NCBI RefSeq assembly: GCF_036588685.1
Contig: NC_086375.1
Span: forward strand, 47,492,001 to 47,556,000
Direction: 5' to 3'
DNA: 64,000 nt
Origin: Mytilus trossulus
Taxonomy: Eukaryota
The notes below the pieces were generated by a model. That model was not told where the DNA came from. It was given only the letters and a program-made list of their open reading frames with translations, and ran no database searches. Of this stretch, positions 6,801-37,835 are shown piece by piece (positions within the stretch are counted from its first letter, which is position 1; the number at the start of each line of letters is the position of its first letter). The position numbers and the translations under genes were made by a program.

Positions 6801-6872
6801 TTTAAGCTTTCTTCATAACACATTTGTTGATTTTAAAACACTGTCGAAAATCAATCTTAGTATAGTTGAAAA

Positions 6873-9009: not shown

Positions 9010-9256
9010 CACAGGCAAAATTGCAACGCATGTAAACGCATGTTTACCAGGAATTTACCGTACGTTTCTAAACATGTCAGAAACGCATGTTTGGAGCACC
9101 GTACGTTAAACGCATGTTTGGAGAACGTATTGTTTACATGCGTTTATGGGAAACATGCGTTTGAAAACACATGGTTAACGCATGTTCATGGTAACCGTAT
9201 GTTTGAAAACATATGGTAAACACATGTTCATAAACCGTATGGTAAACGTATGTTTG
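9010..9256 (+). repeat. Left TIR and subterminal repeat array (AAAC[G/A]CATGTTT-like near-palindromes)
   Basis: Repeated aaacgcatgttt / aaacatgcgttt / aaacgtatgttt / aaacacatg units in both orientations directly inside the terminus. Confidence 0.9.
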
Positions 9257-10028: not shown

Positions 10029-13000
10029 TTAAACAGTGGCCTGAGGTTCTGAAATAATAAGTAAGATGCAAAGTTAATTATGCATTTTTTTATAACTACC
10101 AATTAATCTTTAATTAAAAACAAGAAAAATAAATTAAGTTGAGGTTAATATTAAGTACATTGATACATAAACATCTATATGTTTCTGAAAGACATTGAAA
10201 ATCAATTATATCAGATTATAAACAGTTAAATTTTCCTTTCTTAACTAACGGGTTTCAGATAAAAGAAACTATAAGTTTTTCAATTTTATTGTATTTAAGG
10301 GTAAAGAAAATCAAAAGATACATCCTCATCCCAGATACATTAATTGTATTTCAATCTTCATAAAGCAGTAATATCGATCCTTGTGGATTGTTAAATTTTT
10401 TTTTATATATTTTTGTGTGTATGACAAAGATTAGTAAGCATTCTTTCATTCTTTAAACAAGAATGTGTCCATATAGTACACTGATGCCCCATTTACATTA
10501 TCATTTTTTTCTGTTTAGTGTACCGTGAAATAAGGATCAAAACCCTAATAAAAAGTAGTCACAGGAAGTAAGTCAGGCTCTGACTACAACAAATGTAGAA
10601 ATCATTTTAACGGTACATGATTCAACTTGATTGTTCCCTTGCATGCAAACATTTAAATATCATTAACACAAGTGTCAGACTGACATACAGTGGTTCAGAA
10701 GGTCATCAGACGGAAGTCAATTAATAAATGTACACTTATCCTCTGTAATTAGAAATTTTTATACACTGTATTCAAATTGCATATATCCTGTTAAATTGAC
10801 AAATGACTAGTAAAAGTCAAAATTACTAGGGAATCACTGCATAGACAAAGAAAGAAATGGAAGGAAGGACACAGAGAATGTAGTCAGACTGACAGACAAG
10901 GTGAATTCTAAATTTATACCACCAATATGTAAATGAGTGGTGATATTATTTGATTGATTCATCTCACTTTTTCTAAGCAATAAATATAAATATACTTTAT
11001 AACAAAATACCTTGTCTTCTCTTGGTTCTTCTTGAGTCCAATTCCTGGAGTGTTTTCCACTTTTCAGGATCATTTATAACCTGGATCTCAACAAAGTAAT
11101 CCTTAAATTTTCCCCAAAAGTCAAGAAAAAATTCCACCTCATCTGACCCGTTTGTGTTTAATTTGTGCTTGTTGAGAAATGACCTCTAAAATAAAAACAA
11201 ATAAAACAGTTATTTGTATTACAATTAACTAACTTAAGAATAATGTACTTTCTTACACGCCTATAATATATTTAAATAACCTATGGAAAACTTGTAAACA
11301 ATTCCAGCTCTTCAACTTTTTAACTGCATTATACCCCTATGTTCTATTTTTATCCATGGCGGCCGTCTTGGTTGGTTGGTCGGGTCACGCCACACATTAT
11401 TTAAACTAAATACCCCAAAGATGATTGTGGCCAAATTTGGATTAATTTGGCTCAGTAGATTCAGAGGAGAAGATTTTTGTAAAAGATATATAAGATTTAC
11501 GAAAAATGTTAAAAATTGACATTAAATGGCAATAACTCCTAAAGGGGTCAACTGACCATTTTGGTCATGTTGACCTATTTGTAAATCTTACTTTGCTGAA
11601 CATTATTACTGTTTACAGTTTATCTCTATCTGTAATAATATTCTAAATAATGACAAAAAACAGCAAAAAATCCCTAAAATTACCTAATTCAGGGGCAGCA
11701 ACTCAACAAAGGGTTGTCCGATTCATCTGAAAATTTCAGGACTGATAGATCTTGACCTGAGAAACAATTTTACCCCCTATCAGATTTGCTCTAAATGCTT
11801 TGGTTTTTGAGTTATAAGCCAAAAACTGCATTTTACCCCTATGTTCTATTTTAAGCCATGGTGGCCATCTTGGTTGGTTTGGTGGGTCACCCCACACATT
11901 TTGTAAACTAAATACACCAATGATGATTGTGGCCAAGTTTGGTTCAATTTGGCCCACTAGTTTCAGAGGAGAAGATTTTGTAAAATTTAACGACAAACGA
12001 CAACAATTGTATTAAAGTTGATTATCAAGGTAGGTTATGTTTGATTTTCTATTCTATTGCATTATTCGCATATGTACTGATTTCAGCAAGTCAACATGGC
12101 GGCTCATTGGTTACGAAATGTCAACTTTGGATTTGACGGTAGCTCACGGGAAAAAACATATAAATCAACATGGTGTCGAGAATGAAACATTTTTTTTTCA
12201 GCGGTTGTTCACGAAATAATCCGTGCAAGCTACGGATCTATTAAAATGATGAGCTTTATCTAACAGGGAGTAAAAAAGAACAGCCATACACACAGATTTA
12301 CCCACCCTCGCTTCAGTTTTTTTAATGATCGTATTTGTCCTATTAGAATCGAAATAACTCATGGAAGCCATAGATTATTGGAAATTTACACATGGCCTGG
12401 GCCGTGATATTCGTTGATTTTATCCCTCGCTAACGCTCAGGATAAAATTTGAATATCACGGCCCGGGCCATGTGTAAATTTCCAATAATCTATGGCTTCC
12501 ATGAATTATTTCTTAATTTACACATGGCCTGGGCCGTGATATTCGTTGATTTTATCCCTCGCTTTCCAGGCCATGTGTAAATTTCCAATAATCTATGGCT
12601 TCCATGAATTATTTCTTAAATAACAGTTTGAATAACAAAAAGTTATAAAGGATGTTATGAGTATTTGGAAATAAAATAAAATCTTGAATTGATACTTTAA
12701 GTGCCAGTCTGCCTACTTAGAATCAGGCAGTGGTCAAAACATGACCAAAAAAAAACACCCAATTTGACATTAATTTCAGTTCATAATATGTAGTTATGCA
12801 CAAAAATAACATCCATTTCCGTTTTCTGTTCTGGTAATAGAAGATACAATTTGGTAGAAATACACAAGAGATTAAAAAATAAGGGGAGATAACTCTGTAA
12901 TTTGCTATAATTCTAACCAATTTTCTAATCGAGTTATTTGATATTACCAGACACATCCAAACGAAAGACTAATAATTTTTAACTCAGGATTATGGTTAGT

Positions 13001-16000
13001 ATTAAAAAGCATGATTAGCTCAATGGGTTTTTTATAATCATGTTTTGATTTTAACCTAAATTGCCTGATTCTTACAAAGACTGGCACTTAAGTCTGAAGA
13101 TCATTAGTTAATTAAGATTATATATTTCTAAAACTATCAAATCATACTTTTTTGGCATCAACATGATCAATATAATATAAAGCAAATGTTACCTAAAATA
13201 TTAACTTACTAATAGCAGGCTCAGTTGCCTTCTTTTGGGGGCCAACACATCAGATGAATTACAGAATGGGCCAAGGAACACTTTACTGAACTCATCTAGT
13301 TCCATGGCCTGTACATCTTTTCCTGATTTTATGTCAAGAGAAATCTAAAATGTATGACTTTAATTTTAGTAATTAGTACCAGTAATTAAGAATAAGACAA
13401 GTGTAACTCAATGTATTTGAAAAATTTAATATGTCCATTAATTTTTAGATAAATGCAAATCAGTCCTATTTAAACTGAGTTTTACTGTGTATATTGCTGT
13501 CACATGTTTCTTTATTTTACATTGTCATTGGCTGGAAGTATAGGGGAGGTTAAGTTCTCACAAAATATGTTTAACCACACAGCATATAATTTGCACCTGT
13601 TATTTGTCAGGAGCCTCTAGCCTTTGTTAGTCTTGTATGTTTCTGAAGCATTAGTGTAATCAATCCCGTTTCAAAATAACTAGACTAAGATCAATCATTC
13701 CTGGTATACAAGCTAGTGTAATCATTCTTGGTTTAAAAAGACTATATATACTGTGAATATTACTCAGAAGAAAACACTATTTTACTTTCTCCTTTTCTAA
13801 GTTAAATCAACAATGCAAGTTTACCAAGAAATAATTGAATAATTAAAACTGGTCTTTGTTTGTGTGATTGACAATGAGACAATTTTCCATCAAAGTCATA
13901 ATGACAGGTTGGGAACAACCTCTTAATTTTATAAATATCCCTTTTAATGAGGGGTCAATATAACTTTATCATGTTTATAATATTTTTTGTTGTAAAAAAC
14001 ACTTTTTAGTACAATAAGGAGGACCACTAAATTTCCAGTTGCAGTAGGGTCTTAGACAATAAAAAATGGCTGGAAACGGAACAATTGTAAAAAATTCCAG
14101 TTTTGGGTTTTGGTGAATAATTTGGAGATGCTTAAACTTAGAATCCTTATCTTTTAGTACAATGTAGCTGCCAGCCATATATTGGTTTTGATGATTTTGG
14201 CAATGTATAGGTATTTCCCCTGTTATATTTCAGAGCACTCTAACTTAGGATTAATTGGTTTCACAGATACATGTATGTACAGTGTGGTGGGGTGCTAATA
14301 GGTTTAAAATCGTTATATACAGGTTTATAAATCTTACTTTTCTCCTTAATTGGTTTCTATAGTCTGTAAATTTGGCTGCAGACCACTGCACCACCATCTT
14401 AAAGGCATGACCTTGGCCTTTGAAACCTTCTTTATCAAGGTGTGATTTTACTTCATTCTAAAATAGATTGACAAGATAATATATTATATGAACGACTTTT
14501 AAATGTAAAAAAACAAAATACACATAATCCAAAACTCAAACCACAACTGTAAAGCATTGAAACTTAGTAAATTTACAAGCAATGACTATATGAGTTAACA
14601 AATGGTCAAGTTTGACATTTAAACCAGTCAAACTACGGTTTAACCTCAAACTAATTGCAACAGAAAATGTTTTAGTACTAATCTATAGCATAATGCCATA
14701 AATTAATAAACACAGAAAAAAAGTCCCATAAAATCTAACTGGAGGAAAACTCAAAATCAGCATTTTTATTTTCCTAGGGAAATTAAACACTGAAAGGGGA
14801 GATAACTCTGCAAAAAAATTTAGTCTTTCTTTTTTGTTCAGTTTTTGGGTTTTTTTTTGAAATTTGTGTAAAGTATGATACTGTGATGGGGTAATAAGTT
14901 AAATATATAATCTTCTGCTCATGAAATGTACAAAACCAAAGTATTATGGGTAGTTTTATTTTTTTTGGGCATGTTACATTGCAAATTTGAAGCTTTGTGT
15001 CCGTTTAAACTAGAGGCTCTCAAGAGCCTGTGTCGCTCACCTTGGTTTATGTGCATTTTAAACAATGTACACAGATAAATTCATAAGAAAATTGTCAGGA
15101 TAGCCTTGTGCAATGTAACCTTATTACACCAATCATTTACTCTACATCTTAGAACTTACTTTGAAAACTATGTCTGAAGTGGTATTCAACCATGGGTTGA
15201 CACTAAACTTCTCCCGAAGGTAAGTATTAAGTTTCTTCTGGAAATAAACAAAATTGATTTCATGATTTGATTAAGAACTTTTTTTATATTTGAAGGGAAC
15301 AAGAGGATAAAAGGTACCAAATAATAAGTATTAATTAACCCTCTCTTACATTAATTTTTTTTTCTCTGCAATCTTGATTCGCATAGGATTCTTGTAATAA
15401 AATGCTGAAAATATGCTTAAAAGTCAGTAATATAAGCAGCATATATGTAACTGTCTTTGGATATCTTTAAAAAAAAATTAGAATGGAAACAGTCTCAGGG
15501 AATGTGTTAGTGTCACTACATTGATGTGAATACCTCACTTGGCCTTTAATTGGGCCAAATAAGCTAAACAAAAATATACATGATATTCTGCAAAAATTAT
15601 TTTAGAACTGCATAAAACAAGAATGTGTCCATAGTACACGGATGTCCCACTTGCACTATCATTTTCTATGTTCAGTAGACCGTGAAATTGGGGTCAAAAC
15701 TTTAATTTTGAATTAAAATTAGAAAGATCATATCATAGGAAACATGTGTACTAAGTTTCAAGTTGATTGGACTTTAACTTCATCAAAAACTACCATGACC
15801 AAAAACTTTAACCTGAACTTCACACTATCATTTTCTATGTTCAGTGGACCATAAAATTGGGGTCAAAACTATTATTTGGCATAAAAATTAGAAAGATCAT
15901 ATCATGGGGAACATGTGTACTAAGTTTCAAGTTGATTGGACTTCAACTTCTTTAAAAACTACCTTGACCAAAAACTTTAACCTGAAGCGAAAGGACGAAC

Positions 16001-18125
16001 GGACGCACAGACGGACGAACCGAGGCACAGACCAGAAAACATAATGCCCCTCTACTATCATAGGTGGGGCATAAAAATACCTTGAATGAGCATTCCTCCA
16101 TTAGGAAGCTCTGTCCTTTCTGCTCTGACTGCCTCTTCAGGTACAGCACATCAGCTGATAGTTCTTGCAGAACCTTTTCCATTTTGACTAGCTTGTTCAC
16201 TTAAAAAAATTGTATTATGATAAATATTCTTAGCCAATTTAATTAATTTTTCTCATTACCTTTTGTTCCAATTGTAAAAATCAAGTAAAATTCTCAACAC
16301 TTTTTCAGTTATAATCATTCTTCATTAAACTTCATAGTTTTTCTCTTTAGACTATGATTCAGTCAACCTAAAAAAAATTATTCACATCTATATGTCCTTG
16401 ATTGACCTAAAACAGGCTAAAATTGTATAACAATAAATGATATGTCACTTAGAGTGAAAGTAATTTTATTGAGAAAATAATTGAAATTCCTCAAGTCCAA
16501 TTATTTTAATGGCAGGCTTCTATAAGAAATTTGGTTATTTGCTTAAAGTGTAATAAAACTAAATGAATAAAAACGCTATCTATCTGTCTCATCTAGTTTC
16601 GAGTGATTTAAACGACCCAGAGAAAATACCCAATTTTACTATCCATACTAAGAAAAAAATTCTTAGTATGGATAGTAAAATTGGGTATTTTCTCTGGCTC
16701 GTTTAAATCACTCGAAACTAGGTGAGACACGCACAGAAGTGATAGATATGTATTATAAATATAGAAAATTGAATATTTTTAATAAAAAAAAAAAAAAAAA
16801 TCTGTATCTTAGACCCAAGCGCATGTGATTAGAGAACCCATTATATATCAAGAACACATGTTCCTTGATTATAAGTTAATGGTTAAATTCTTTAACTTTT
16901 ATATAAACAGTAATCAAATGATATGTACCAATATGTAAAACCAACATTTTTTAAAGTTTTGCAGTCGTATAAAAACCATTGAACTGTTACAATTAATAAT
17001 TGAAACCTAGTTAGATTACTTTATTTATAGAGTATGCACTTACAAATTTCTTTGGATCCAGCACTAGCCCCTGCTGGGTTTTCTGGCGGTGCAAACAAAT
17101 CCTGGGAATGGTCTTGCTCATCTCCAGGTACAGCAACAGGCACATTTTCCTGTGAATCCTGTATAAAAAAAGTATACATGATAAGTTGATGGGATACTTT
17201 TAAAAATGTTAAAGGCACTAGTTCCTGTAAAAATGTACGCTATTGTTCAGAATTAAAAGCCCCCCCCCCCCCCCCCCACAAAGTGTTATAAGAGGGGTTG
17301 CGACATTGACTAACCTAAAAAGGGGATGGGTGTCCAGACCAGTCATACTTCAGTGATTCCCTATGTAATTAAACATTTTTTTTTAACATAAGAGGGATGC
17401 CCCTCCCCTGAAACCACCTTTGGCCCTTTGGATACTACGAAAAATGCTTTTAATTATGAGCATTTAATTGAACTGAAAGATGCTTTTATTAATGGGCATT
17501 AAATTGAACTAAAGGATGCAGGGTCATTCTATATGATGTGTTCATATTAATTCACACCTTTTGTTTAAACAGTTCAATCTGCTGTGCAATTTTTTTTTTA
17601 ATTCAGATGTGAATTTTAACAGAATAATATAAAATTAATATGATGTAATACATAAAAAGAAATCTCTTTTAAAAATTAAGATTTTATATGATTAAAGAAT
17701 TTTAATATCCAATCAAAGGTACATCCTACAATTAAAATTGTAAAAATGTAAGGTTTTCTGAAATAAATATTAATGTGTTAAGACAGGAGTCCATCAGGAC
17801 AAGTTAGATGATGGTAGTAATACTAATATATATATAGTGAAGAAGAAAAAAATCTTTGTAGATTTAAAGAAGATATTTATAATAATGTCTATATATCATG
17901 TTTATTAAACTTATCAAACTTTTTTCATCTGTGAATTATCTGACCAGTGTTAACTGGTATAGATCATAAAATATTTCAATATGTATCAGGAATCTACCAA
18001 ATTCTTAAAATGCAGCAAAATTCATTTCTTTTTGTACTCTAAAGCCGGCAATTTAAGGCGAACTGAAAAGTATCATTATTCCTTTACCCATATTATGATA
18101 ATATACCTACCTCTAACGCACTCAT
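10029..18125 (-). CDS. Transposon accessory protein (ORF2, TnpA-like role inferred), 7-8 exons, ~256-258 aa
   Basis: Exons 18111-18125 (MSALE), 17044-17158, 16081-16199, 15160-15237, 14338-14457, 13210-13344, then 10997-11185 (or 11011-11185 plus final exon 10029-10048). All GT-AG, phase-compatible and open. Low-complexity N-terminus, coiled-coil-like ILNKLVKMEKVLQELSADVLYLKRQ, then KFTDYRNQLRRKI and DFWGKF. First and last exons are least certain. Confidence 0.78.
11320..12000 (+). mobile_element. Non-autonomous repeat with internal ~500-bp-spaced direct repeat (Helentron/HINE-like, tentative)
   Basis: cccctatgttctattttt..ccatgg.ggcc.tcttggttggtt..tcagaggagaagatttt occurs at ~11330-11480 and ~11830-11985. 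A related inverted fragment lies at 61860-62140. Confidence 0.6.
12351..12620. repeat. Long hairpin (12351-12512) with adjacent partial duplication
   Basis: Arms catggaagccatagattattggaaatttacacatggcc / ggccatgtgtaaatttccaataatctatggcttccatg around a cgctaacgctc centre; partly repeated at 12516-12619. Confidence 0.8.
15615..16078 (+). mobile_element. HINE/DINE-1/pearl-like non-autonomous element
   Basis: Starts aacaagaatgtgtccatagtacac, has two ~178-bp tandem core repeats, a GACG-type microsatellite and a terminal atgcccc...ggggcat hairpin. Partial copies at ~10456-10550, 24285-24530, 27350-27440 and 32280-32545 (minus). Confidence 0.7.
16585..16729. repeat. Near-perfect inverted repeat, 70-bp arms and 5-nt loop
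   Basis: tgtctcatctagtttcgagtg...ctaagaa aaaaa ttcttag...cactcgaaactaggtgagaca, about 2 mismatches. Confidence 0.9.
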
Positions 18126-18570
18126 GCTCTTTTCCTTCAGTTTTTGTATGTTTGACTGATTTCACTGTGATGCGTATTCAAATAAATTTTGACAGAACTG
18201 TGTAACTTTGTAATAGTCGTCTGCTAAATGACGTCACATCGGAAGCGTCGGTAAGAGCGCAACAAAAGCTGAAGCGGAAACGTAAACGTGATGTTTCTAA
18301 AAATCTAAAGTCAATCGAAAGTATATAATTGTTGTGCAGTTATTTTAACGAAATAAAATAAATAAATATAGTAAACGATTTAGATACGTACAATGTTCTT
18401 ATTGTTGAAATAAAGAGGGATACTTCCGTGTAACCGTTTCCCGTTTTTAGTTTGACCCGTATGACAATCGGAATATTTTTGGGCTTGACTCAACTGAATT
18501 CAACAACCCTAGAGAGCTACCGAGTGAATCATTGTTTACTGCGTAACTATCAGTTGATTACTATGTCAGT
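18126..18570. promoter_or_regulatory. Putative bidirectional promoter of the transposon genes
   Basis: 445 bp between divergent start codons, locally CpG-richer. Perfect CRE TGACGTCA at 18229-18236. ETS-like CGGAAG at 18240-18245 and CTTCCG at ~18423. Confidence 0.6.
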
Positions 18571-21500
18571 ATGTACATCTGCGACTGCTGTAATTTTAAA
18601 ACAACGCGACTGTTTAATTATCAGAGACACCTGAGCAGAGCTACACACGAGCGGCAAGTGTTTTTAACTCAAGAGAACAATTACTCTTTCTCACCTGGAT
18701 CTATTGAACCCCCTTCGGATTTCGTGTCGACAGCCTTCTCCGGCAGTGAAGAAGACATATTTATACAAGTAAACCATGAAACACTAGATGAAAATGAAAA
18801 CAGAACTAGCGAGACAGATCAATCTGACAATGATTTCCAGGAAAACCACCAAACAGCAGATGAAAATGAAAACTGTAATACTAATAGTAATAACGAGACA
18901 GGCCCATCTGACAAAGCCCCAACATGGTATCCTTTTTTATCCAAAGCTGAAATGTTGCTGTACATCTTTATGAATTCTACAACACATCCAGTTGTAAGTT
19001 TGTCATTTTATGATTTTATTTAATATAAGAGGTTTAAAATGGTATTGGGTCTGTTCGCCCTAATTACAAAATGTACATGTACAATGTACATGTTCGCCCT
19101 GGGACCTGTTTACCCTCAGTTTGTTCGCCCATAGGCATGGAGTCAGTTCATCCTACAAAATGTACTTAAAAATATTTTAAAATATTCAGGGCAATGCAGT
19201 TTAAAAAAATTATTTAGATTATTATTTCTAGGGTATATTCTTGAAATTTATTGAAATTAACATTATGTGACTAGACAACAATTAGAAAAAAATAAAAATC
19301 AGGGAGAATGGACCCTCACAGTGCGAACAAGTATCAGGGCCAATATAGGTACAAGGGCGGACACGAAACAGGTCGAACAGTTTAAATTATGTTGTTGAAA
19401 AAATAATTGATCTTACTGTAAAGAGTTTGGAATTTAAATTTGTTCTCATACATATGTATCAATTAATTAAATGGATAAAATACAGGTAAGACATCAATAC
19501 AGTGGAATAAGGTTTTAAAGGACTTTGTTAATTATAAGTTGACATTTATTGTCAGACTACATTGTACATTTAATGTAAACAACCATTTTGTAAACATATG
19601 CAAAATTTGGATTTGACAAAAAATCAAGAATCAGAATACATATTTCCAACATGTCAAATTATTCTTTTTTAAGTATATAGGACAGGATCTTTATGTTTCA
19701 TATTTCTATTAAAAAAAAGAATACATCTTTTCATTATCAGTCAGTTCATACAGATTGGTAAAGTCTTTGATTAAAAAGCTGAAGGTTAAAAAATTTCTTC
19801 ACTAAATGTTATAATTTCCAGGTTTAATTCACATTTTATGACATTAAATTATAAAACTAAAGCATTTAGAGTAAAATCTGACATGGGATAATAATGCTCA
19901 TTTAATGTTATTATAGATAAAGAGAAATTGTGAACAGCATAAGATTTCAGCATAGTCAGATCTAATATATTAGTGAATATGACCATAATTGTCAATTGAC
20001 TCCTTAAGGAGTTATTTTCCTTCAATGACAATATAGCACATTGTGTTCAATCATATTTGCTTTATTTTACAAGGTTCCAAAATATTTGACATAAATTTAT
20101 ATAATAAGCATTGAAATTAATTAAACTGTAATTTCATTTTTCAGAGTGATGAAATAGTGAAGTATATCATTTTTATGATGGGAGAACTGAATGTGACAGA
20201 TGTCCCAACTCTGCAGAGTTTGAAAAATAAAAATATTGGAGACTTCAGCTGGAAAGATTTTGTGACAAAAGTGAGGGTTCTATTAATTATGATACATTGT
20301 ACATGATGAAAATTGGGTTATGTATTCAGAAAAAAAAAGTGAATTAAGAGCTCTTTGAAAGGAAGCATTAAATATAGAAAGAAAAGAAAAAGTTGCAACT
20401 ATAAAAACCATTTATCAAATCAATCCATGTGTTCGTAGATAGTAGATGTTGTTGTGTCCTGTTAAATTGTTATACGATGATGACTGATGTTCCCATATTT
20501 TGACTATTTTATTGATTGTGACTGTTTATTTAACGCATCATGTAAATGTAACGGAATTTGATGAGACTGTTATTAAAGTGAGAGGGTTAGCGCTATAGAA
20601 CCAGGTTTAATCCACCATTTTCTACATTTGAAAATGCCTGTACCAAGTCAGGTATATGACAGTTCTTGTCCATTCGTTTTTGATGCGTTTTGTTTTTTGA
20701 TTTTGCCATGTGATTATGGACTTTCCAAATTGATTTTCCTCTAAGTTCAGTATTTTTGTGATTTTACTTTTTATCATCCTCTATGTTAGTTTTGTTTGAA
20801 ATCTATACAGTATAAGAAAACAACAGTAAAATTAAGGACAACTATGATGTGTGATAAAAATGAACTGGAGCGTTTTTAATGACTAAAGCCCTTTGTTAAC
20901 CTTTATTAAAGTCTCAGTGTCAAGCAGTCTACATAAAGCTTGATTATACTAACATCATTATACTGCAATTTTGTTATACATGAAAGTCATTCATAACTTT
21001 TTTTACTCTGAAATTTGATTTTATACATTTTATACTTTACAATTTTTTGTAGTCTACAAGTGAAGATGGCATTCCTGTTTGGTCGATGAAACCATCACAG
21101 GTATTAAGGCTCAATATGGCACATCCTAAGATCTCAAAGTCACTCAAAAGGTATACGCAATCAATTCTTAGATAACTCTTTTATAAAGATTGATCTTGAT
21201 CACAGAAATTAACAACTACTGACAGCCTTCAACTATGAGCAATGTCAATACAGCATAGTTCATTATAAAAGGCCCAACAATTACAAATTTATGCGAAACA
21301 ATTCAAAGTAGAAAACTAGTGGCCTAATTTATTATAATGTACAAATAAAAGAATGAATAACAAGTATGTAACACAGCAACAAACGACAACCAAGGCTTCT
21401 GACTTGGGACAGACACATGCATACAAAATGTGGCGTGGTTAAACATGTTACCACATCTTTGTGTCACACACAGTCATGTAACAATTTTTTAGCTAGTTAA

Positions 21501-24500
21501 AACAAAATTATCCTATTCCTATAATAAGATCACCAAACTTAGATAAAAAGGTGAAATAGGAAACACCAATACAAGAAATCTGATAAAGCATTGAGCATAT
21601 GAAAAGATGATTCCAATTCAATGTTTTATACATGTTATGTTATATACATGTATATAATATTTTGTAGAAGTGCTGATGAAAATGAAGTTATAAGACATCC
21701 TGCCAATGGAAAAAAATGGATTGAAGATCTGAATTTTAACTGCCAAACCCAAGATGGACAATCTGTAATCACAATCCCTTTCAATATGTTTCTGGATGAT
21801 ACAGCCACTCATAAAAGTAGACGCTGGATGCCACTACATTGCATTCAGATGCAACTATCAGGTATTAATTTATTTAAGTATATTGATGCGTGTTCAAACA
21901 TATCAATTTAATATTGTGTCAATGACAGTTTCTGCATCAACAACAAAAATGCATATCATCCCTATGTTCTGTACTTTGCAAAGTTAATGTTTACCAATGG
22001 ATGGATCATAGACACCAGTTACAGATGGAATTACCGTAGTGCATGAGCTGAAAATCACATTGAAAATAAAAAGAACAGTTGCAATATTATAATGATATTA
22101 AAATAGGATTAAACACATTTTTAATAAAGGTTATGATGTGTTAACATGTTGTTAACAGGGGCAATTATACTCACAATCTGGATAAAAACCTAAAAGAAAT
22201 GAGTTTATCCCTTATAATTTTTCAGCCAAACATTTCCAATGTTTGAGAAACATTTTTTGTTTGATGGATACAATATTTACCATCAACAGATTCCCAAAAG
22301 CACAATGGCATGCCATAACTAAGGTTACAAAGCCATCTTGAATTTCTAAAAACCATAAATGTCTGACAAATGCAACAGAATCTAAAATGATATATCTTTT
22401 ATTTGAAATTTTTCCCTCCTGTATCATAATAATGTTAAATAATTCATTTTTTTATTAGGGATTCCAATAGATATGAGACAGAAACAAGAGACAATTCAGT
22501 TCTTGGGAGCAACAGAAAAAGCTGACATTATGGATGTTGCAAAGATAATAATAGATGATGTCAAGAGCAATAGGTACATGTATAGTACTTTAGTAAATAA
22601 ACAAATGTGAAGAAATAAAATGGCAACCGTTTGTAAGAGTATCTTAAAGGTATTTTACAAAACATTGGTATACCATTAATTTTATTTAAGGACATGACTT
22701 ATATTTTTTCTGTCATTTTTATAGACTTATATGTATAATATAAAAAAGAAGATGTGGTATGATTGCCAATGAGACATGTCACGGAATAGAAGTTCTGTCA
22801 TAACATAAGTACCAAAAGGAAAATATATTCTGGAATATTGTTTCCACAGGAATAAATATTACAGTATATGTTCCTAACGGAATAAATGGTATAGAATATT
22901 TGTTCCATCAGGAATACATGGAATAGATATTATGACAATGTTTATAACAAAGTTTCCATTGGAACTTCTGTTAGAGGAACAAATATACGTTGACAGACAA
23001 CTATCCACAAAAGACCAAAATGACACAAACATTAACAATTATAGGTCACCATACGGCCTTCAACAATGAAAAAAATATAAAAAAGAAGATGTGGTATGAT
23101 TGCCAATGAGACCACTATCCACAAAATACCAAAATGAGACAAAAATTAACAATTATAGGTCACCGTACGACCTTCAACAATGAGCAAAGCCCATACCGCA
23201 TATAGTCAGCTATAAAAGGCCCCGATAAGACAATGTTAAACAATTCAAGCGAGAAAACTAACAACCTTATTTATGTAAAAAAATGAACGAAAAACAAATA
23301 TGTAACATAAACAAACGACAAGTATGTCTGAGCCAGTGACAACTCTACAACAGATTTATCTGTTGGATCACCAGCAGTGATGGTGAGACATGGCTGTGTA
23401 CATTATGTATATATATACAACTCTTCTAAACATCAACCCAACAATGTTATATCTATAAATTTGCTTTTGCAAATTTTTGTTCTTCCCTTGCCTGGATTCG
23501 AACCCAATCCCAGCGAGGGAAGAATAAAAAATTTGCCAAAGCAAATTTACAGACATAACATTGTTGGGTTGATGTTTAGACAAGTAGTATATATACATAA
23601 TGTACACAGCCAATGGATCATATATAAATGAGCCAATACATATATTTTTATTGTCACTGTGTTGGAAAGATAAAGCAGATACAAAATATGAAGCCTGCTA
23701 CTTTTAACACGTTTCTAATTACTGTAATTTAGTATTTTAACAATTGATAATTAAGATATAATACACATCAAATTAATTGATTCACATTCCTCAGTTTTAA
23801 AATTTGTTTTAGAAATGGAATTGAGACCTTCGATGCAGCCAATAAGAAGAAATGTTTTGTGACAGGAGTAGTTGATTGTATCGTTGCTGATTTTAACATG
23901 ATGTCATATTGTTGTAATCATCTTGGAGCAACAGCTCAGAAGTACTGTCCAAAATGTTATGTATGTATAACTACACTTTGAAATGAATATTATTCTCAAA
24001 TGATTTAAATATTGAAAGAAATTAAAACTTTGACAAATGAACCAATGAACAATGACAATCAGGTCACCATCAATTGACCCCTGCAAGTTTGACATAAACA
24101 CCTAACAGATATTCCTTAAACCAAATATAGTTTTACATCCTTTAGTATTTGGAAAAAAAAACAAATCACAAAATAATGACATTGAACAATAAACAATGAA
24201 AATAAGGTCAAGGTCAGAGTAAACCTGCCAGACAAATATATACAACTTACAATCATTCCATAAATCAAATATTGTTTTACTATCCCAATATTGGGTTAAA
24301 AACTCTATTTGGTATAAAAATTAGTAAGATCATATCAAATAGAACATGTGTACTGAGTTTCCTGTTGATAGGACTTGAACTTCATCAAAAACTACCTTGA
24401 CCGAAAACTGTAACCTGCCATTGGAATTACAAACAAATGAACTAACGAATGAAAAATGGATGGACTTACAAATGGGCGCATAGACCAGAATACATAATGC

Positions 24501-27500
24501 CGTTTTCTATCATAGGTGGGGCATAACAATACCTAATCACGGAAAAATATCATTAACCAATGAACCATGAAAATGAAATCAAAGTCAGACTATTACTGGC
24601 ACACAAACATACAAGTCGTACAATCATTCCATACACCAAATATAATTGACTGAATGTAAAGTTTCCAAAAAATAGACCAAAACTGAACTTTGACAACTGA
24701 AGACCAAAAATAAACTTAGTGACAACTGAACCATTGAATTGAGGTTAAAGTCATGAAAACTATCGTTTGCACATGTACACTTACCAATCATTCCATACAA
24801 GTGATCCATGAAATGAGGTCAAGGTCAAACGAAAAGTATCTGACAGGCATTAGTACAGTAGAAGGTATTCACATACCTTATATAAAAATAAGTGGCTGAT
24901 CCAGGGGTAGATTGGAACCACTATCCCTTTTTTTATTCAATCAATAGGGACATATGTTTGAAACCACCCCTTAATACCTGGATTTGGACCCCCTGTTCTT
25001 GAAAATAGATCAGCCCCTGGAAATCATATTACATGGCAAAAAGCTCAATTTATTTTGACTTTAAAATACTTTACTTTATTTTATGTTTTAAGGCTGATGC
25101 AGATCACTTTATGTCGCTGTGCCAGAAAAGAACACCAGCAGATACTAAGCTCCAGTTAAACAGACTTAGTTTGAGATCTCTTGAAAAGGATAAAAAGAAA
25201 TTTAGGAAGAAAAAAGGTGTGAAAGAGCATGACAATGTTATGTGGGATGTATTGGATCCACACAGGTAAATATAAATCAATCAATATCTATCTATAAATT
25301 TGACCCTAACCTGAAAGTAATTGCAACAAAAGTTTTTTAAGTTTTAATCTTTAGCATTATACCCCAAATATACACAGAAAAAAGTCCCACAGAATCTGAC
25401 TTGAGGAAGACTAAAAAAATTACCATTTAAAAATCCTAAGGAGATTTGCATTGAAAAGGGAGATAACTCTTGCAAAAAAGGCAGAAATATCAATAAAAAT
25501 TGATACAAAATTACAACTTTACCGCTTCTATTCACCAGAATGTAATGCTTCTGATATTTTATCGGTCTTTAGAGTAAAACGAACAACTCTAAAGGTGTTT
25601 TCATATCTTTTATCAAGCTAAAATCTAGATTTCCTAATTCATTAGTTGACCAATTTTTGAATTTTTCAACATGTCAAGGTAAAGAATCTCTAATTTAATA
25701 AAAAGAGTTCAGCATGTATTCTTCTTTTTGTGGTTTAAAGCTTCTTTAGATAAGTAAGATGCTGAAAAAATATAATACACAGATATAAACAATATCAAAT
25801 TTTCACATTATTTTTCAAAAATGGTCACAAAGCTTCAAATTTGCAATTTCTTTAATGAAAAATGCACTCAAGAAATAAAACTACCCATAACACTACAGTT
25901 TTGTACAGTTCATGAGCAGAAGATAATATAATTTAGTCAAAAACAAACTTATAACCCCATCAAAGTATTATACTTTACATAAATTTCAAGAAAATATACC
26001 TAAAAAGACAAAAAAAAACTCATTTTTGCGGAGTTATGGGACTTTTTTCTGTGTATATTAAGGGCATAATGCTATAGATTAGAACTGAAACATTTCCTGT
26101 TGCAATTAGTTTGAGGTTAAATCTTAGTTTGGGTGGACTAATAAGAAAATGTGGTGTAAGTGTCAATTATTCAACTCCCCAGCCAAGAGATAATGTGGTT
26201 AAAATAAACATTTATAGGTTACAGTACAATTTTAAACACAGCGCCTTGGCTCATCCCAAACAGCAAGCTATATTAGGGACCCAAAATGACTAGTGTGAAA
26301 CAATTCAAATTGGATAACCAACTGTCTAATTTGTAAACAAAACAAGAAAATGACAGTTGATATAAATTCAGCTTGTTCAAACATTTCATAGGCAGTTCCA
26401 GGGGGGGGGGTGGAGCTGGGCCCCTCCTTTTGTGGGAAAAACTTGGTTGAAGCATGGCTGGAGCAGGTCCCCCCTTAGGTCAGTCAGTGCCCCCATCCCC
26501 CCTTAGGAAAAGTTGTGGATCCGCCACTGCATTTTTACAGACACCAACCTTCACACTAACATTACAACATAAAAAGAAACACTTTTCAGAATTAATTGAA
26601 AAAGGTTTAACACCTTAAATTGACATGTTTATTTTAAACAAAAAATTATAAGAAGTGACATAATGGAATATTTTAAATATAGAAAACATTTAGTTTAACA
26701 TGTATACTAGCTACCCTATATAATGTAATAGGATACGACCGAACAGTGTCATGGGAATATATTAGCTTTAATTCATGCCTTTCTTTTTTTAGAGATATTC
26801 CAGTTGGTCTTCTCCACTTATTACCTTTAGGATTAATTAAACATTTAATCCAATACATATTTAACAACATTGGAAAAAATGTTAAGACCAAGCTTATGCA
26901 TCATTTGCTGTCTATTTACCCTGGAGCACAATTTCATGAGTTTGATAAACATTTAGGAAGTAGACAAGGGAAGGATTTTAAAGAATATGTGAGTAAATTT
27001 ATTTATATTTTAATTTGTAAACTAGAATGAGCATGAAATATCCATCAAATAACCAAAAACTATTAAATGGGAGAACCACTTGCAGAAGTATGGTATATGT
27101 GAGTGATTGCAAAGGTTATGCTTGTCTCCCACGTGGTGATAGGGGACATAGAAATACCAGACATTAGTCTGTTAGACCTGTTAACACTTACTTGTATATA
27201 ACTTGTACAAGTTCAAAAATGGTCGCAACCAACCTTTTTAAAGAGTTATGCTTCTTGGAAATATTAAGTCCTCTCATGGGTAAATTTTTTGTGTGAAAAT
27301 GAGTGCTGATTGACTTATTTATGGAGAGTTATGCCCTAGGTCTATAATAGCCTTTGACTTTAACCTGAAGCGGGACAGATGGAAAAACAAATGGACACAC
27401 AGATCAGGAAACCTTATGCCCATAAATTGGGCATAAAAAGTAACTAATACAACAATTTCTACATACAGTGTTTTAATAATAAGCATATGAATATTTAATA

Positions 27501-30500
27501 GTACATGTATAAAGAATGAACAGTATTGATTTTGCTTATTTATTAAAGCCAATCCACTATAAACAAATATTTATAAACTAAATGATATTTTTTTTTAAAA
27601 TATTTTAGAAATTTCCCATAGTCTTAAAATGCATAGTATTTCTTTTCAGTTGCAAATAGCACCAATTAATATGTTGTATGCTGGTGTTCCAAGAAGATAT
27701 ATTAAGATGGTGACTAGTTTGGCTCTGGTATGTAAGACATAATTAAATTAGTAACTTATAAACATATTTCCATTACAATTTTAATTGGAAGTGATTGCAG
27801 TGTCCTCTTTTATCAGATGCACATTTATGATTTAAAAAGTGGTACTGTTTTTATAAAGGTTAATTACTTTCCCTGCCTTAAACAATGTGTTTAATTTTTG
27901 TTTTGCCAATTAAAACCATACACCAGGAAAACCAGTAAATCAAGATTAATAATATTATATCATTGGAGTTTGTAAATTGATTGTAACCAGATATATCATG
28001 TTAAGGAGGGGTATTTTTAAAAAATACCAGTCTAGAGAATGTTAAATTTTGCGAGCCGTAAGGCGAGGGAAATTCATTCTCAAGACTAGTAATTTTCGCA
28101 AATGCCCCTCAAGAACATGCTATATCTGTTTAATTACATCGAATGTTAATGTTAAAAAATGCATTGATGATTGTGACGTTACAACCGTCAAGTCCGATAG
28201 AGTATTTTTTGTCTAATTACACCTTATATAAGAATGCCAGCTTTTGATTGGCTGAAAGCCAGTGTATTTTTCGCATATTCTAACATTTTTTCCTCATTTC
28301 AAACGAATCTGACTGTTTTTCACCACTGCAGGTGAATATGCTTCAAATACCATGGTATTTGCCATTTTGGATATTCCTTTTTTACCCTAACGAGCATCTT
28401 CCCGCAAATTTTTTTCGGATACGACTTTACATAAAGACAGCGCGAACGTGCATTAGTACATGTATTTTCCCTCGGTATATTTTATGATTGTACTTGTCAT
28501 CAAATACATATTTCCTTTTCCTAGTACAGAGAGTTTAAATTAAAATGTATTCGGTGTAATTAATCAGATATATCATGTTATGGAGGGGTTATATAATTTG
28601 CAAAAAATACAAGTCTTAATGGGACAAAATTTCCCTTGCCTAGCGCCTTGGGAAATTTAAGTCCCTCAACTTGTATTTTTCGCAAATACCCCTCCATAAC
28701 ATGATATATCTGTTCAAAATACCACAGCAGAGAGGGTAAAAAAGGCATATACTTTTTGCAAATACCCCAGTTGCCTTTAAAATGAACAATTTCCATTTGG
28801 AAACAGTAAACTAGTGAAAAATTCACTGGCTATTAGCCAATCAAAACCCAGGATGCTTCTTATAAAAGAAATATAACATGGCTTGTTAGTATAAGCAGAA
28901 CAGTTACTGTTGAATTTCAAATGATCAGAATTATCTATTCTGTTTTTTTAATTTGTTTTATTTTTATTGTTAAAGATCCAGAAGAAATTGAATGAAACCT
29001 CATTTTGTTCAGAAGATTTGGACAAAATAAGAGAGGATATTAGAGAATATCAGCAACTTATATACCAGTATGCCCCAGAACTAACCAGAAAAGTAAAAGC
29101 ACATCTTTTGCTACACTTGGTAAGATGATCATTAGATATTGTTACTATTGCTTTTAATACTCTTTTTTGGTTTTGATAACGTTTTAAATGTTACAAAATA
29201 TTTCAAGGGTGCTCCGCGTCACCAGGTAATTTAAATTTGCGACAGTAAAACTACTGATGGACGTCCTTAAAGCTTCAAATACAATACAATTATCTCTTAA
29301 CTGACATAGCAATTTTTCAAATACAGTATTGATACTCTGATTGTAATGCATCTCAAAAAGAAATAATACGATAAAACTTTATAAAATGTCTTTTTTTTTA
29401 CCAATTGAAAAAATCCTGTGAAACTTCATGAATGATTGTATAGTTGTAATCGAACATTTGTTGATTCAATCATTTCAAAATGGAGGGTCCCTCTTTAGTA
29501 ACAACTGGTCGATGGTGAATTTGATGTCAATTTTTAGCCAATTTGAATAATGTTACATACATATTGCATTAGAAACTTGTACAACCCTGGTGACTAGAAA
29601 TGGAAGAAAAACAAAAATACCATAACCTATTTAAGACACAGATATATTAAACACAACATTGGAAGCTTAAGAGTAAAAGAGTGAGCAACATAATCTCAAT
29701 AAAGAACAAAGGTGGTCTCAAACTAGAAAAAGAAAACAAGTCATCTTCAAAATGTATCATTTGTCATGATCTGTCATGGTATCCACTATATAAAAAAAGG
29801 ACGTGGAAACCGTTTAAGCATAGCTTATTGAAACTTGATTGTGAAAATTAGTTTTTATTTTTGAAAATTTTTCAGGTAGATGATATTGAAAGACATGGCC
29901 CTCCAAGTGGTTTCCTTGAGGATGGTTTTGAAAAAAAACATGGAAATATAAGAAACCTTATATTCCAACAGAACCAAAAGGCCAGGAGTCGAGACACTGC
30001 CTTCAAGTTTGCACAAAACTTTTTGTGTTTCCATGTGATTACAGGAGGATATTTTGAAAGGAGCAGAATATGGTATGTTGCATTGTTAAACTATATGAAT
30101 TGAGGTTCATTTAACACTGACATTTCAAAAAAATGTATATATACTTTAGTAAACAATAAGATGTGTTATGATTACCAATAAGACAAGCCTCAAAGTATGT
30201 TTAAAGTAGTAAATATAAGCAAGTATAGGTGTCAGTTCAGCCTTTGCGGGATTCAAATCCTTCAACTTATTTGGAACATTGATTTTACAGGACAATAAAA
30301 GAAACAAAAACATTTAAAACTCTTTTAATATACTCAGTTTAACAGTCCGACATGAAGCATGTAACATATGTTTTGAAGAAACTTGGCTGACAGGGACAGG
30401 GCCATTCGTGTCACTTTGACACATCTAGTTTATAATTTTCAGGACACAAGCATCTGCCAAAGTACTTGAATCTGGAGAAAAAGGTCCTATTCTGAAATTT

Positions 30501-33024
30501 CTTGGTATAACACAAGAAAAAACCAAAATACCAGGAAGAATTTCGCTTCTGAAAAGAGATGGAAATGGACATCCAATCATTGAGAATGAAAAGCAAGATG
30601 CGTTGTTACGCATGTCCCTCCAAATTGCATCAATAGTTGATAACAATGATTACACAATTGAAAGAGGGACTGGTGTATGTGCTCAGAATGGTGATCTAAT
30701 ACATGCTGGTGACTGGGTGAAATACAGAAATATAAATAGTGATGTAAGTGAAATAATTAAAATATGTATTTACATTTAGTTACACAGTGTCTAATTAAAC
30801 AGTTATCTTAGTTAGTTTTTCAGGGATATAATGAAACTCTTTTTAATATGCTGTTAACATATATATATTGAAATTTAAAATAAATATGAATAATTATATA
30901 TATATAAAATTACAAAATGCTAAGAAAAATGTTCTTTTATTGACTAATAAGTATATAGAGAAAACTAAACATAGTTTGGAAACGTTGTGGGACAAGCATG
31001 TTGTTATTCAGCTATTCTGTGATGTTGATATCCCCTTACCCCTGTAAAGATTTAATAATATTATCAGATTATTACATGGCATTTTTCATATCGCATGTAT
31101 TATCAGCCCCAGGTTCAATATCAGCCCAAGAGCCGCATTGCTCGAGGGCTGACATTGACCGAGGGCTGATAATATAGGCAATATGAAAAATGACATGCTA
31201 TGATCTTTTTATCATATGCTTCAACAGAAGAGAAAAATAACAGATTTATATATTGATTCTTTTACGTGGTTCCCGAAAAGAAGTTGAAAGAGTAAAAAGA
31301 AATGTTTCTATCATATGCCTCACCAGAGAAAAAAACCCCACACATTTTATATGGACGAATCGACAAAAAAATAATTCAACAATATACACAATGAACATTG
31401 TTTGGAAAAGACAATTTTTTTAAGTAACTTTCTAAATTATGTTTCAGAAAAACTTAAAAAATGCATTTATTTAATATATTTTTTTTTAAATTTTATTTTA
31501 TTACTTTACACAAAGAAGTATATCAACCTCAGACTTCGTCCTCAGTCAATATATTCTTATATTATTAATTCTTTTATTTTAACAAATTTGATTTGTTTAG
31601 GAATAGTCACATGTTAAACTATATTTTTGAAGTTAGAGAAAAACGGCTGATAGCAAAAAGCATATTGCACAGAGCATATTGCACGGTTATTTTTAGAATA
31701 TCTTAAACCTGATTTACTTTGTGACGTCATGTAATGAATTTCAGGATATCGTTAAACGTTTTGAAACAAATTATATCTGTGATCGATTATTTGTTGAAAA
31801 ATATCTTTAATTAGATTTCAAATACATGTCAAACAAACAAAAAAAGTAAATTAAATAACAACTTATATGTCGTTATTGTCAAGGAGACAATATGATATCT
31901 ATAAAATTCAAACAAAATCAAATGATGATTTTGATACAAATATGCATAACATGGTCTGAAATCAATAATATAACAAATATAGCCTTTGTATGAGGTCAAT
32001 ACAGGATATATCGACCCAAAGAAGTATATCGAACTCGGACTTCGTCCTCAGTCAATATACTTCTTTCAGGTCAATATATCCTTGTATCGACCTCATACAG
32101 AGGCTATATTTGTATAGTATCGACCTCATACAAAGGTTATATTTGTATATTATTACATTGTCAATATTTATATGGGTTCATATACTCTATCAAGGTATCC
32201 TTTTAATTGTTTGATGTTCCAGAATACTTTGCTACAGTTATGCTTATGATGATGGCACATAATATAGGATTACACACATTTTTATGCCCTATCTACACCT
32301 ATGATAGTAGAGGGGCATTATTTGTTCTGGTCTGTGCGTCTGTTTGTCTGTCTGTCCCGATTCAGCTTACTTATTTGTCAAGGTATTTTTTTTATGAAGT
32401 TGAGTCCAATTAACTTGAAACTTGCACATGTTCCTTATGATATGATCTGTCTAATTTTAAAGCCAAATCAGATATTTTTATCCCAATTTCACGGTCCATT
32501 GAACAAAGAAAATGATAGTGAGAGTGGGGCATCAAGTCGTAAGGACTACGTAAGTAGTTCAGGCAGAATGGTTTAATGGTTTATGAAAGTGTAAACTAAG
32601 GATAGTAAATCTAATGAAACAATCACATTCAAATATTTTTTGGTATGCAAATTAAATTAGTATTATAATTAGATTATATAAATGTATTTTTCAGATCTGC
32701 TATGGTATTTTCAAAGAAGCTATGAAGATCTGTCCTAAAAGAGGATCTGTGAAATTAATAGCTGTGGTATTGAAATGTACCATTACTGGTGATAAGGTTG
32801 TGCAGTGTCCTGTTTTGAGACTTTCAAATCTTAAAGAATATGTGCCTACCCTCCAAATATTATCTAACAGTCAAGTTATACACAGCTGTCATGAAGCTAG
32901 ATGTAAAGTTATCGAGGGATTGATCACAGAAAAAATTGAACAGGAAAACATTGTCAGAAGAACAGTCACCTTTAACCATAAACTTCAGTGTCAAACCTAT
33001 TTATTGAATGTATTTAAATTTTAA
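18571..33024 (+). CDS. CACTA/EnSpm-like (CMC) DDE transposase, 13 exons, 840 aa, N-terminal C2H2-type zinc finger
   Basis: Exons 18571-18993, 20145-20270, 21053-21150, 21668-21861, 22459-22573, 23813-23960, 25093-25265, 26793-26988, 27650-27727, 28976-29119, 29876-30072, 30443-30743, 32695-33024. All introns are GT-AG and phase-compatible; 2523 nt with no internal stop. Motifs: CDCC..H..H, FLDDTATHKSRRW, GIETFDA, IVADF, YCPKC, DPHRDIPVGLLHLLPLG, GKDFK, KAHLLLHL..I.RHGP, GFEKKH, SRD.A, IHSC...C, YLLN. Confidence 0.88.
20425..20773 (-). repeat. Abundant interspersed repeat (aaaagtaaaatcacaaaaatactgaact family)
   Basis: In-window copies at ~8757-8822, 43097-43310, 56900-56995 and 59080-59370. 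Confidence 0.7.
22777..22995. mobile_element. 219-bp MITE with TGTCA...TGACA ends and 4-bp GACA TSD (Ginger-like)
   Basis: Interrupts the host repeat gattgccaatgaGACAactatccacaaa. GACA is duplicated at 22773-22776 and 22996-22999. Internal GGAATA repeats in both orientations. Confidence 0.75.
23320..23612. mobile_element. Head-to-head foldback of a tRNA-derived SINE
   Basis: Inverted arms ~100 bp across 23391-23612. Pol III B-box GGGTTCGAATCC on the minus strand at 23494-23505. Confidence 0.65.
25300..26125. mobile_element. MITE with ~90-bp imperfect terminal inverted repeats
   Basis: taacctgaaagtaattgcaaca...acacagaaaaaagtccca at the left and its reverse complement at 26037-26120. Deleted relative at ~14636-15000. 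Confidence 0.6.
27985..28725. mobile_element. Non-autonomous element with related hairpins at both ends (unclassified)
   Basis: Hairpins cagatatatcatgtta.ggaggggt...cccctc..aacatg.tatatctg at ~27986-28130 and ~28565-28712. Confidence 0.6.
31065..32150. repeat. Palindromic repeat remnants with hairpins at ~31072-31200 and ~31965-32150
   Basis: tattatcagccc...gggctgataata and acaaatatagcctttgtatgaggtc...gacctcatacagaggctatatttgt arms. Confidence 0.6.
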
Positions 33025-36419: not shown

Positions 36420-36845
36420 CAAAACATGAAAAACATATGTTTTTGAACATAAATATCTTTATTTTGTGTTACTCAAAACATACGTTAACGGCCTGTTTTC
36501 AAACATACGTTAACCAGATGTTACTCAAAACATGCGTTTACCAGGTGTTTTTCCAAACATATGTAAACTACATGTTTTCAAACACATGTTTACCAGGTGT
36601 TTCTTAAAACATATGGTAAACATATGGTCAAACGTATGTTTCTCATATGTTTTGTAAACATGTGTTTCACATGCGTTCATCAACGCATGTTTACTACATG
36701 TTTTTCAAACATATGGGAAACGCATGGTTTCAAACACATGTTTACCACCTGTTACTCAAAACAGATGGTAAACATATGGTGAAACGCATGTTTACCATAC
36801 GTTTTCAAAAACACCTGGTAAACATGCGTTGCAATTTTGCCTGTG
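36420..36845 (-). repeat. Right subterminal repeat array and TIR
   Basis: Same motif family as the left end over ~430 bp, ending ...acatgcgttgcaattttgcctgtg. Confidence 0.9.
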
Positions 36846-37835
36846 TATGTTATTTTGGTATCTTTCGAATTTGCTTTATTGTTCCCGCTTAATTTTTTTC
36901 ACGTTGTTTTTTTACTTTGATCTGAAGAAATAATTGTTTGTATTTTGTTTTTCTATTGTTGTATTTTGTTAACCATACTGTTTTGAATGTTCCCTTCGTA
37001 CCCTTTGCCTAGCTCTTTTTATTCCGAATACATACACATTTTACATAAACATATTACTCTATTTTAAAAACAATTAAGCTGCCGTGTGAACATTATGAAA
37101 AAGTCGATCTTGACTAGGAATTGATAAACCATTGTGACCACAAAGTTAACCAAAAACTCAACAACCTTTATTTGAATCGGTAATCTTTTGTGGTTTTTTG
37201 TTTGATTTTTTTTCTTGTTTATGAAGTATTCATGTTGTTATCTAATGATTTGTTTTTATTTGCGTTAACATCAAAGTGTGTTGCCCATTAACATTGATAT
37301 TTTGTTTCAATATGAATACTTATCATTGATTTTTATCAAAAAATTAACTGTCTGTAACAACCTTTTCGTGTCATTCCTTCAGTGTATTGTGAATACATAG
37401 CTAACAACATAAACATTTTTCATATAAGATAATTTATTTTCATAATATAAATCACTGTTATCATTTTACAATAATTAACAATAATAACTTTTGTCTTTTC
37501 ACCATTTAAGTTTTTTCTTTAAATTCATCATCTTGACTAATTTCATATTGTTTCTCAAAGAACTATTTCGTTTCTCTTTAAGTTCATACTGATGATTGAT
37601 TTCACATTGTTTTTGTAAGTTCGTGTCCTTGCCCATCACCGGCACTACTTATTCTCCATCTGAAATACTGTAACTCGACAGGAATATTTCAATCCATCGT
37701 AGGAATGTACACCAGTGGTACATTCCATCTCCAACTGCTTCTATCTCAAAGTCTTTTGACAGCAAAAGGTTTTGCTATTCTTAACACAAGATGTGTTTAG
37801 TAAATGTTTATCTCCGGGCAGAGATAAGTTCAAGT

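Follow-up and report, generated by a model that had tools for sequence, protein, structure and literature searches.

What kind of mobile system encodes the 840-amino-acid (aa) transposase of a gene with 13 exons in the mussel Mytilus trossulus, and where does that system begin and end? We analysed a stretch of 64,000 nucleotides (assembly GCF_036588685.1, contig NC_086375.1, positions 47,492,001 to 47,556,000, forward strand), hereafter the window, and number positions from its first letter. A first-pass annotation had placed the gene at 18571..33024 and read its product as a transposase with a divergent CACTA signature of fungal type. Using ends common to sister copies, we located around this gene a transposon of 27.8 kb (9010-36845), which is probably an intact two-gene element, likely moving by cut-and-paste, with a transposase predicted to share the fold of RAG1 and Transib, and which is likely an animal branch of the ESTA and CNEST transposons. 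The gene itself was borne out; the termini, a second gene and a family of non-autonomous elements had been missed.

Ends and target-site duplications of the element

The transposon is bounded by 24-bp terminal inverted repeats (TIRs), the left one (9010..9033, + strand) being perfect and starting with CACAG, and the right one lying at 36822..36845 (− strand). On either side the sequence reads TA, which we identify as the target-site duplication (9008..9009 and 36846..36847). Arrays of subterminal repeats with an AACRYRT-type motif occupy 9025..9255 on the left (12 matches in the first 300 bp) and 36430..36830 on the right (26 matches in the last 450 bp), compared to just 27 matches across the 27-kb interior. 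The end pattern was found 65 times in the genome (37 forward and 28 reverse matches), compared to 1 and 0 matches for the reversed control. Among 16 facing end pairs (14 fetched for the purpose, one sister copy and the window element), the flanks were TA/TA in 13, TC/TC in 1 and TA/AT in 2, one of the latter joining two left ends, so that a 2-bp duplication is present in 14/16. Because one member is flanked by TC/TC, the two flanking bases are a direct duplication outside the inverted repeat, which rules out the possibility that TA is part of the TIR.

Transposase sequence lies inside only two of the 16 paired elements, the window element and one sister copy. Derivatives that lack the transposase and bear related ends span 0.1-29 kb; eight of them are ~96% identical to a reference derivative and four are 91-93% identical, and they resemble the window element chiefly at the ends (80-83% identity on the left and 92-95% on the right). 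Between the three sister copies, which lie on other contigs or arms, identity is 97-99%, introns included. The ends of a distant family in this genome likewise read CACAGGCAA and are flanked by TA/TA, and for 4/5 distant copies no TIR pair attributable to the transposase was found within 40 kb.

One miniature element (G000:C10:1970031-1970175, L046) measures 145 bp and shares both the ends and the TA/TA flanks. A 23-kb composite (G000:C12:54510459-54533660, L047-L049) lies between two inverted left ends of the derivative family, contains an internal right end and has no matching duplication.

Exon structure and splicing of the transposase gene

The transposase gene (18571..33024, + strand) consists of exons 1-5 at 18571-18993, 20145-20270, 21053-21150, 21668-21861 and 22459-22573, exons 6-10 at 23813-23960, 25093-25265, 26793-26988, 27650-27727 and 28976-29119, and exons 11-13 at 29876-30072, 30443-30743 and 32695-33024. 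With borders set by snapping candidate borders to GT/AG, all 12 introns (370-1951 bp) are GT-AG and the 840-aa frame has no internal stop. The motifs listed in the first-pass annotation were located at the expected positions of the protein in 12 of the 12 cases searched, and a Pfam scan of 10 of the 13 exons, taken singly, gave no transposase match. Two sister copies contain exons 2-13, and the third exons 2-11, with lengths and AG/GT borders unchanged, and the database protein P0003, which is 88.8% identical to the 840-aa transposase, reads across the same exon junctions. Of the 12 intron positions, 11 are common to a distant long-form copy with 16 introns.

Spliced contigs were drawn from four public runs of four studies, which are presumed, not documented, to be RNA. 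The splice 18993-20145 across GT..AG is present in contigs of 4/4 runs, at least three of which extend into exon 3. In run X2, pieces end at most a few bases from the borders of exons 1, 6, 8 and 11 and from the start of exon 12, and further pieces read into introns. Near-identical transposase transcripts occur in runs carrying two organism labels. Given the recurring exons of the sister copies, the junctions of P0003 and the spliced contigs, the 13-exon model is not a product of chance.

A long-form relative with 17 exons spread across 27 kb is present elsewhere in the genome (G000:C12:952366-979801, L054-L056); its ends were not found inside the 40 kb fetched.

Conserved residues and predicted fold of the transposase

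A profile built from 25 near homologues retrieved 2993 cluster representatives at E 0.001. The names of the homologues (28 of 30 looked up) include scallops, an annelid, a hemichordate, a sponge and Pompholyxophrys, as well as chytrid-type fungi, Mucor, mushrooms, smuts and rusts (Puccinia, Melampsora), in keeping with the earlier assignment to a DDE transposase family with motifs known from fungi. We aligned the window protein to 158 of 171 proteins (13 shorter than 400 aa were dropped), comprising 34 near homologues, mostly bivalve, and 124 distant ones, mostly fungal where named. The predicted first catalytic Asp, D259 (codon at 21795..21797, + strand), is D in 28/34 near and 117/124 distant homologues (145/158), the second, D345 (23889..23891, + strand), is D in 33/34 and 119/124 (152/158), and the predicted catalytic Glu, E584 (29930..29932, + strand), is E in 28/34 and 115/124 (143/158), so that the triad proposed in the first-pass annotation coincides with conserved residues. 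Likewise, C364 and C367 of a CxxC motif are present in 151/158 and 147/158 homologues, and H560 and H564 of an HxxxH motif in 146/158 and 145/158. As judged from this alignment, the putative D-D-E triad, CxxC and HxxxH are kept from bivalves to fungi. Trees built from the core put the window transposase inside a bivalve group, and its core is 23-25% identical to rust proteins.

An E-to-G change that had been thought lineage-specific or possibly harmful to activity proved to be a misregistration. The fungal T-E-x-F-E aligns with E-D-G-F-E of the window protein, which puts D581 opposite the fungal E (111/124) and G582 in a column that is variable among the 124 distant homologues (R 33, G 17, K 15, I 11, V 10); G occupies this column in 17 of these homologues, and a loss of activity from such a change is not supported.

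The order of domains in the transposase is an N-terminal C2H2-like finger, an acidic linker, a RAG1/Transib-like DDE core and a C-terminal BAH-like domain. Fold models were made for the relatives P0003 and P0004, the latter a long form, and had predicted local distance difference test scores (pLDDT) of 85.8 and 89.2. RAG1 was the best match of the P0003 model (Foldseek E = 4.5 × 10−10, Z 19.0, root-mean-square deviation (rmsd) 4.6, 448 residues aligned); the same model matched HzTransib (E = 3.5 × 10−6, Z 14.6, rmsd 4.8, 404 aligned) and BbRAGL (Z 15.6), and the matches of the two models to RAG1 had Z of 15-19. The structure check proposed in the first-pass annotation yields, in models of relatives, an RNase H-like core matching RAG1/Transib. 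The window type resembles RAG1, ProtoRAG (BbRAGL) and HzTransib in being matched best by their structures, over ~450 core residues, and in its CAC ends, but differs from them in sequence (9-12% identity), in its 2-bp TA duplication and in its extra BAH-like domain. Transib and RAG-like elements make a 5-bp target duplication. No RAG2-like gene was found in the window element.

Relationship to known transposon lineages

The element has all four features given for the CMCT clade in passages of PMC12730594, namely a D-D-E triad, C(2)C with H(3-4)H, CA..TG ends with a 2-5 bp duplication (here CACAG..CTGTG and 2 bp), and an RNase H-like core. Within this clade, those passages define ESTA by TA duplication and RAG1 similarity, with consensus starts that are all CAC and a DDE with C(2)C and H(3-4)H; the ESTA families they name come from fungi alone (rusts, plus one ESTA-1_AB), most of them from Puccinia and Melampsora, and neither Crassostrea nor Mytilus was matched among the ESTA material in these parts of the paper. 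The family of the window element is like ESTA in its TA duplication, CAC-starting ends, RAG1 similarity and rust-fungus homologues. Unlike ESTA, whose numbered families measure 6.6-14 kb in the same passages, it reaches 27.8 kb, has a divergent second gene and lacks the internal barrel domain; also unlike ESTA, no TET/JBP gene turned up in it, no search having been aimed at TET/JBP.

CNEST of Cryptococcus neoformans is described in passages of PMC12810828 as a 7.2-kb element with a 33-bp TIR starting CACGG and a TA duplication, with one gene annotation mentioned, mobility shown by experiment, and a placement among animal transposases that are unclassified, one of them from an oyster. The window element shares with it the TA duplication, CAC-x-G ends and a CMC-type DDE core, and differs in its TIR of 24 bp starting CACAG (4 of 5 letters the same), its 27.8 kb, its two genes and in that its mobility is inferred. 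We infer a single lineage for ESTA and CNEST, which the passages of PMC12730594 and PMC12810828 do not state.

The label CACTA is not supported in its strict sense. Canonical CACTA/EnSpm elements have CACTA/G ends and a 3-bp duplication, whereas the window element has CACAG and 2 bp, and none of 24 full-length homologues reaches the 28.6-bit cut-off of Transposase_21 (PF02992), the best scoring 27.2 and P0003 14.6. Judging from parts of PMC1636069 and PMC13547354, the element is like En/Spm in its subterminal arrays, multi-exon transposase, second protein and large internally deleted derivatives, and like the animal TRC elements in its 2-bp duplications. Unlike both, it has ends other than CACTA/G or CCC and a strong TA preference, and unlike En/Spm its second gene lies head-to-head rather than head-to-tail or as an alternative splice form, and no likeness to TnpA was detected. 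Passages of PMC13547354 mention Arabidopsis families in which TnpA and TnpD are separate genes.

Plavaka ends, which according to PMC12730594 (in part) are TGT..ACA or CATCA..TGATG, with a 2-bp duplication in PlavakaA, also differ from CACAG. The window type is nevertheless like Plavaka (PF18759) in a weak profile match over the region of the second Asp and CxxC and in the 2-bp duplication. In the profile comparison suggested in the first-pass annotation, matches to Transposase_21 and Plavaka were weak, with P0003 below both cut-offs (19.7 compared to 26.3 for PF18759, for which 23 of the 24 proteins scanned fall below).

These matches bear on the alternative that the element is a true two-gene transposon of a separate TA-targeting CMCT lineage, or of a divergent Plavaka/EnSpm branch, outside ESTA/CNEST. 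The weak Pfam matches, the 2-bp duplications known in PlavakaA and TRC elements and the single gene annotation mentioned for CNEST would all accord with it, as would the nearest Atlas clusters, the top three of which carry Plavaka in 28-42% of members. We nonetheless consider it unlikely, as the Plavaka ends and the profile score of P0003 argue against it and as a strong TA preference combined with RAG1 likeness is the definition of ESTA in the passages cited above.

Evidence against the assignment and the possibility of domestication

Several observations weigh against reading the element as a mobile animal member of ESTA/CNEST. The Plavaka content of those Atlas clusters is one, and among the 24 homologues scanned one (P0009) passes the Plavaka cut-off. 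Rust genomes also carry other CMCT lineages (PMC12730594, in part), and therefore shared hosts are circumstantial; the likeness to ESTA/CNEST comes from ends, target, fold and hosts. The fold was modelled on relatives of the window protein, and the Z values of the BAH-type matches described below are 7-9, which is middling and no proof of function. The second gene had no Pfam match (E 1) and no real match to PDB sequences, one match being due to chance. In two RNA runs analysed as raw reads, no exon joint was found among the 15 joints listed, and depth was low, at most ~2 in, for example, the bin holding exon 1. Since the ends are 80-95% identical, the window copy is not established as the source of the derivatives. 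Transposition is deduced from sequence, and a second near-identical copy of the window's subfamily was not found in two exon searches of the genome.

This last result would also suit an immobilised or domesticated copy, whose intact frame is kept by host selection for a host function. Splicing, near-identical transcripts under two organism labels and introns that hold many other repeats point the same way, as does a low ratio of nonsynonymous to synonymous substitutions (dN/dS), which, in the between-copy comparison proposed in the first-pass annotation, was 0.13-0.17 against the sister copies at dS ~0.25 (exon 1 excluded). On the other hand, purifying selection between transposon subfamilies is to be expected, and the ratio is also in line with an intact transposon. 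The ends, a perfect match over 24 bp, are retained, as are the TA duplication and the subterminal arrays, and the sister copies lie at unrelated loci with 97-99% identity. We thus regard domestication as very improbable.

Knowledge of CMCT and RAG systems suggests how the element would move. The transposase would bind the CAC ends, the element would be excised by a site formed by D259, D345 and E584, with Zn held by C364, C367, H560 and H564, and it would be joined into TA with a 2-bp stagger. The same protein would likely also mobilise in trans the 0.1-29 kb derivatives that share its ends, and its C-terminal barrel, predicted to be BAH-like, might contact chromatin or partner proteins.

A second gene divergent from the transposase

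Inside the left end, divergent from and head-to-head with the transposase gene, lies a second gene of 7 exons encoding ~256 aa (gene 2; 10997..18125, − strand), with AG/GT borders and no stops. Its exons are at 18125-18111, 17158-17044, 16199-16081 and 15237-15160 (exons 1-4), 14457-14338, 13344-13210 and 11185 to a stop near 10997 (exons 5-7), the end being a read-through one with an alternative spliced end possible. A candidate exon at 16260-16390 was rejected, having stops in all frames and being skipped by contigs. The first two splices are present in contigs of 2/4 and 3/4 runs, respectively, and the product is identical to the database protein P0181 at 246 of 252 residues. Spliced contigs end at 18178 for gene 2 and at 18509 for the transposase, leaving between the two transcription units a head-to-head gap (18179..18508) that may be a bidirectional promoter, contigs being unable to reveal true transcription starts.

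By analogy to TnpA of En/Spm, gene 2 likely encodes an accessory factor, and its protein could bind the subterminal repeats or regulate the element. It may instead play no part in transposition, being cargo that was captured or a neighbour by chance, which is compatible with the other readings and which we hold to be possible but rather less probable. Gene 2 lacks a family match in Pfam or among PDB sequences, a homologous piece had no usable Atlas match, its exons diverge faster (42-61% identity between the window and sister copies) than the transposase (~89%), and no gene 2 match was found in the 40-kb stretches fetched around five distant transposase copies. Conversely, two sister copies hold it at the same head-to-head place inside the ends, its best genome matches are mostly within, or resemble, these elements, and nine derivatives retain a decayed fragment of its last exon.

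In one sister copy, gene 2 and the transposase are separated by an inserted open frame of 982 codons (G000:C3:4014858-4017803, L012); we presume from its resemblance that it is a LINE reverse transcriptase. The database protein P0182, named HARBI1, fuses the last exon of gene 2 to a Harbinger-type nuclease and is probably a merged gene model. Many isolated pieces of the last exon of gene 2, with some transposase exons, cluster at G000:C5:34.3-69.6 Mb (L074-L087).

Predicted BAH-like domains and the compact form

Residues 561-736 of the P0003 model match BAH domains with Z of 7.5-9 (TNRC18: Z 8.7, rmsd 5.2, 121 aligned). The long-form P0004 has an extra segment that matches BAH, PWWP and Tudor barrels (residues 204-324; BAH of ORC1b: Z 8.8, rmsd 2.9, 95 aligned). 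Aligned by HHalign, the lost insert and the C-terminal barrel gave a probability of 0.8%, the same level as controls, and the BAH assignment therefore derives from structure models alone.

The short segment between the KW motif and the first Asp, previously taken as the mark of a compact lineage, measures 25 aa in nine rows of the alignment including the window protein, compared to at least 100 in 106 of the 120 measurable rows. As the KW motif and the first Asp are both in exon 4 of the window gene, no missed exon conceals a longer segment. The models predict that the clade of the window protein lacks, through deletion, a second BAH/Tudor-like domain of roughly 100 aa that most relatives keep. 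The best tree splits the compact forms, as would be seen after two losses; a single clade is not rejected (approximately unbiased test, p-AU = 0.19).

The PHD finger of RAG2 steers RAG. More speculatively, and with considerable doubt, the window element could be the first animal element to be drawn in full from a superfamily with a RAG1 fold, ranging from fungi to animals, in which built-in BAH/Tudor chromatin readers steer insertion; a bivalve clade would have deleted one reader, and the head-to-head partner gene, which has no known family, would be accessory.

Implications for transposon annotation in animals

The names ESTA and CNEST date from no earlier than 2025-2026 and were given to fungal elements, and passages of PMC12810828 already note animal relatives of CNEST (PMC12730594 and PMC12810828, both in part). 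The window element is not a new kind of system. In literature outside subscription papers and Repbase, we came across neither an account of a complete animal element like this one nor any report that such transposases contain BAH-like domains, and we likewise met neither the partner gene nor the domain loss there, passages of PMC1636069, PMC10294476, PMC13547354 and 10.1101/2021.11.30.470311 included. As an animal test system, the element provides known ends, TA as the target, two genes that are spliced, and naturally occurring forms that have or lack one of the barrels, and it accounts for annotations as 'uncharacterized C2H2 protein' in bivalves. A bivalve survey based on open reading frames of 300 aa curated only two CMC families, according to parts of PMC10294476; intron-rich elements of this sort would probably escape such screens.

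Sequences nested in and flanking the element

The introns of the two genes harbour short palindromic elements and a multi-copy repeat (12351-12512, 16585-16729, 23410-23595 and 11322-12030). The surroundings hold a tandem array of intronless paralogues of a Ras-family GTPase, presumably Rho-like, with one copy on the + strand (6870-7418) and the others on the − strand (37839-38444, 44157-44777, 47017-47577, 49980-50549, 52944-53510 and 59801-60199), in addition to a decayed copy near 2125-3130. The transposon lies between one inverted GTPase copy and the remainder of this array, tail to tail.

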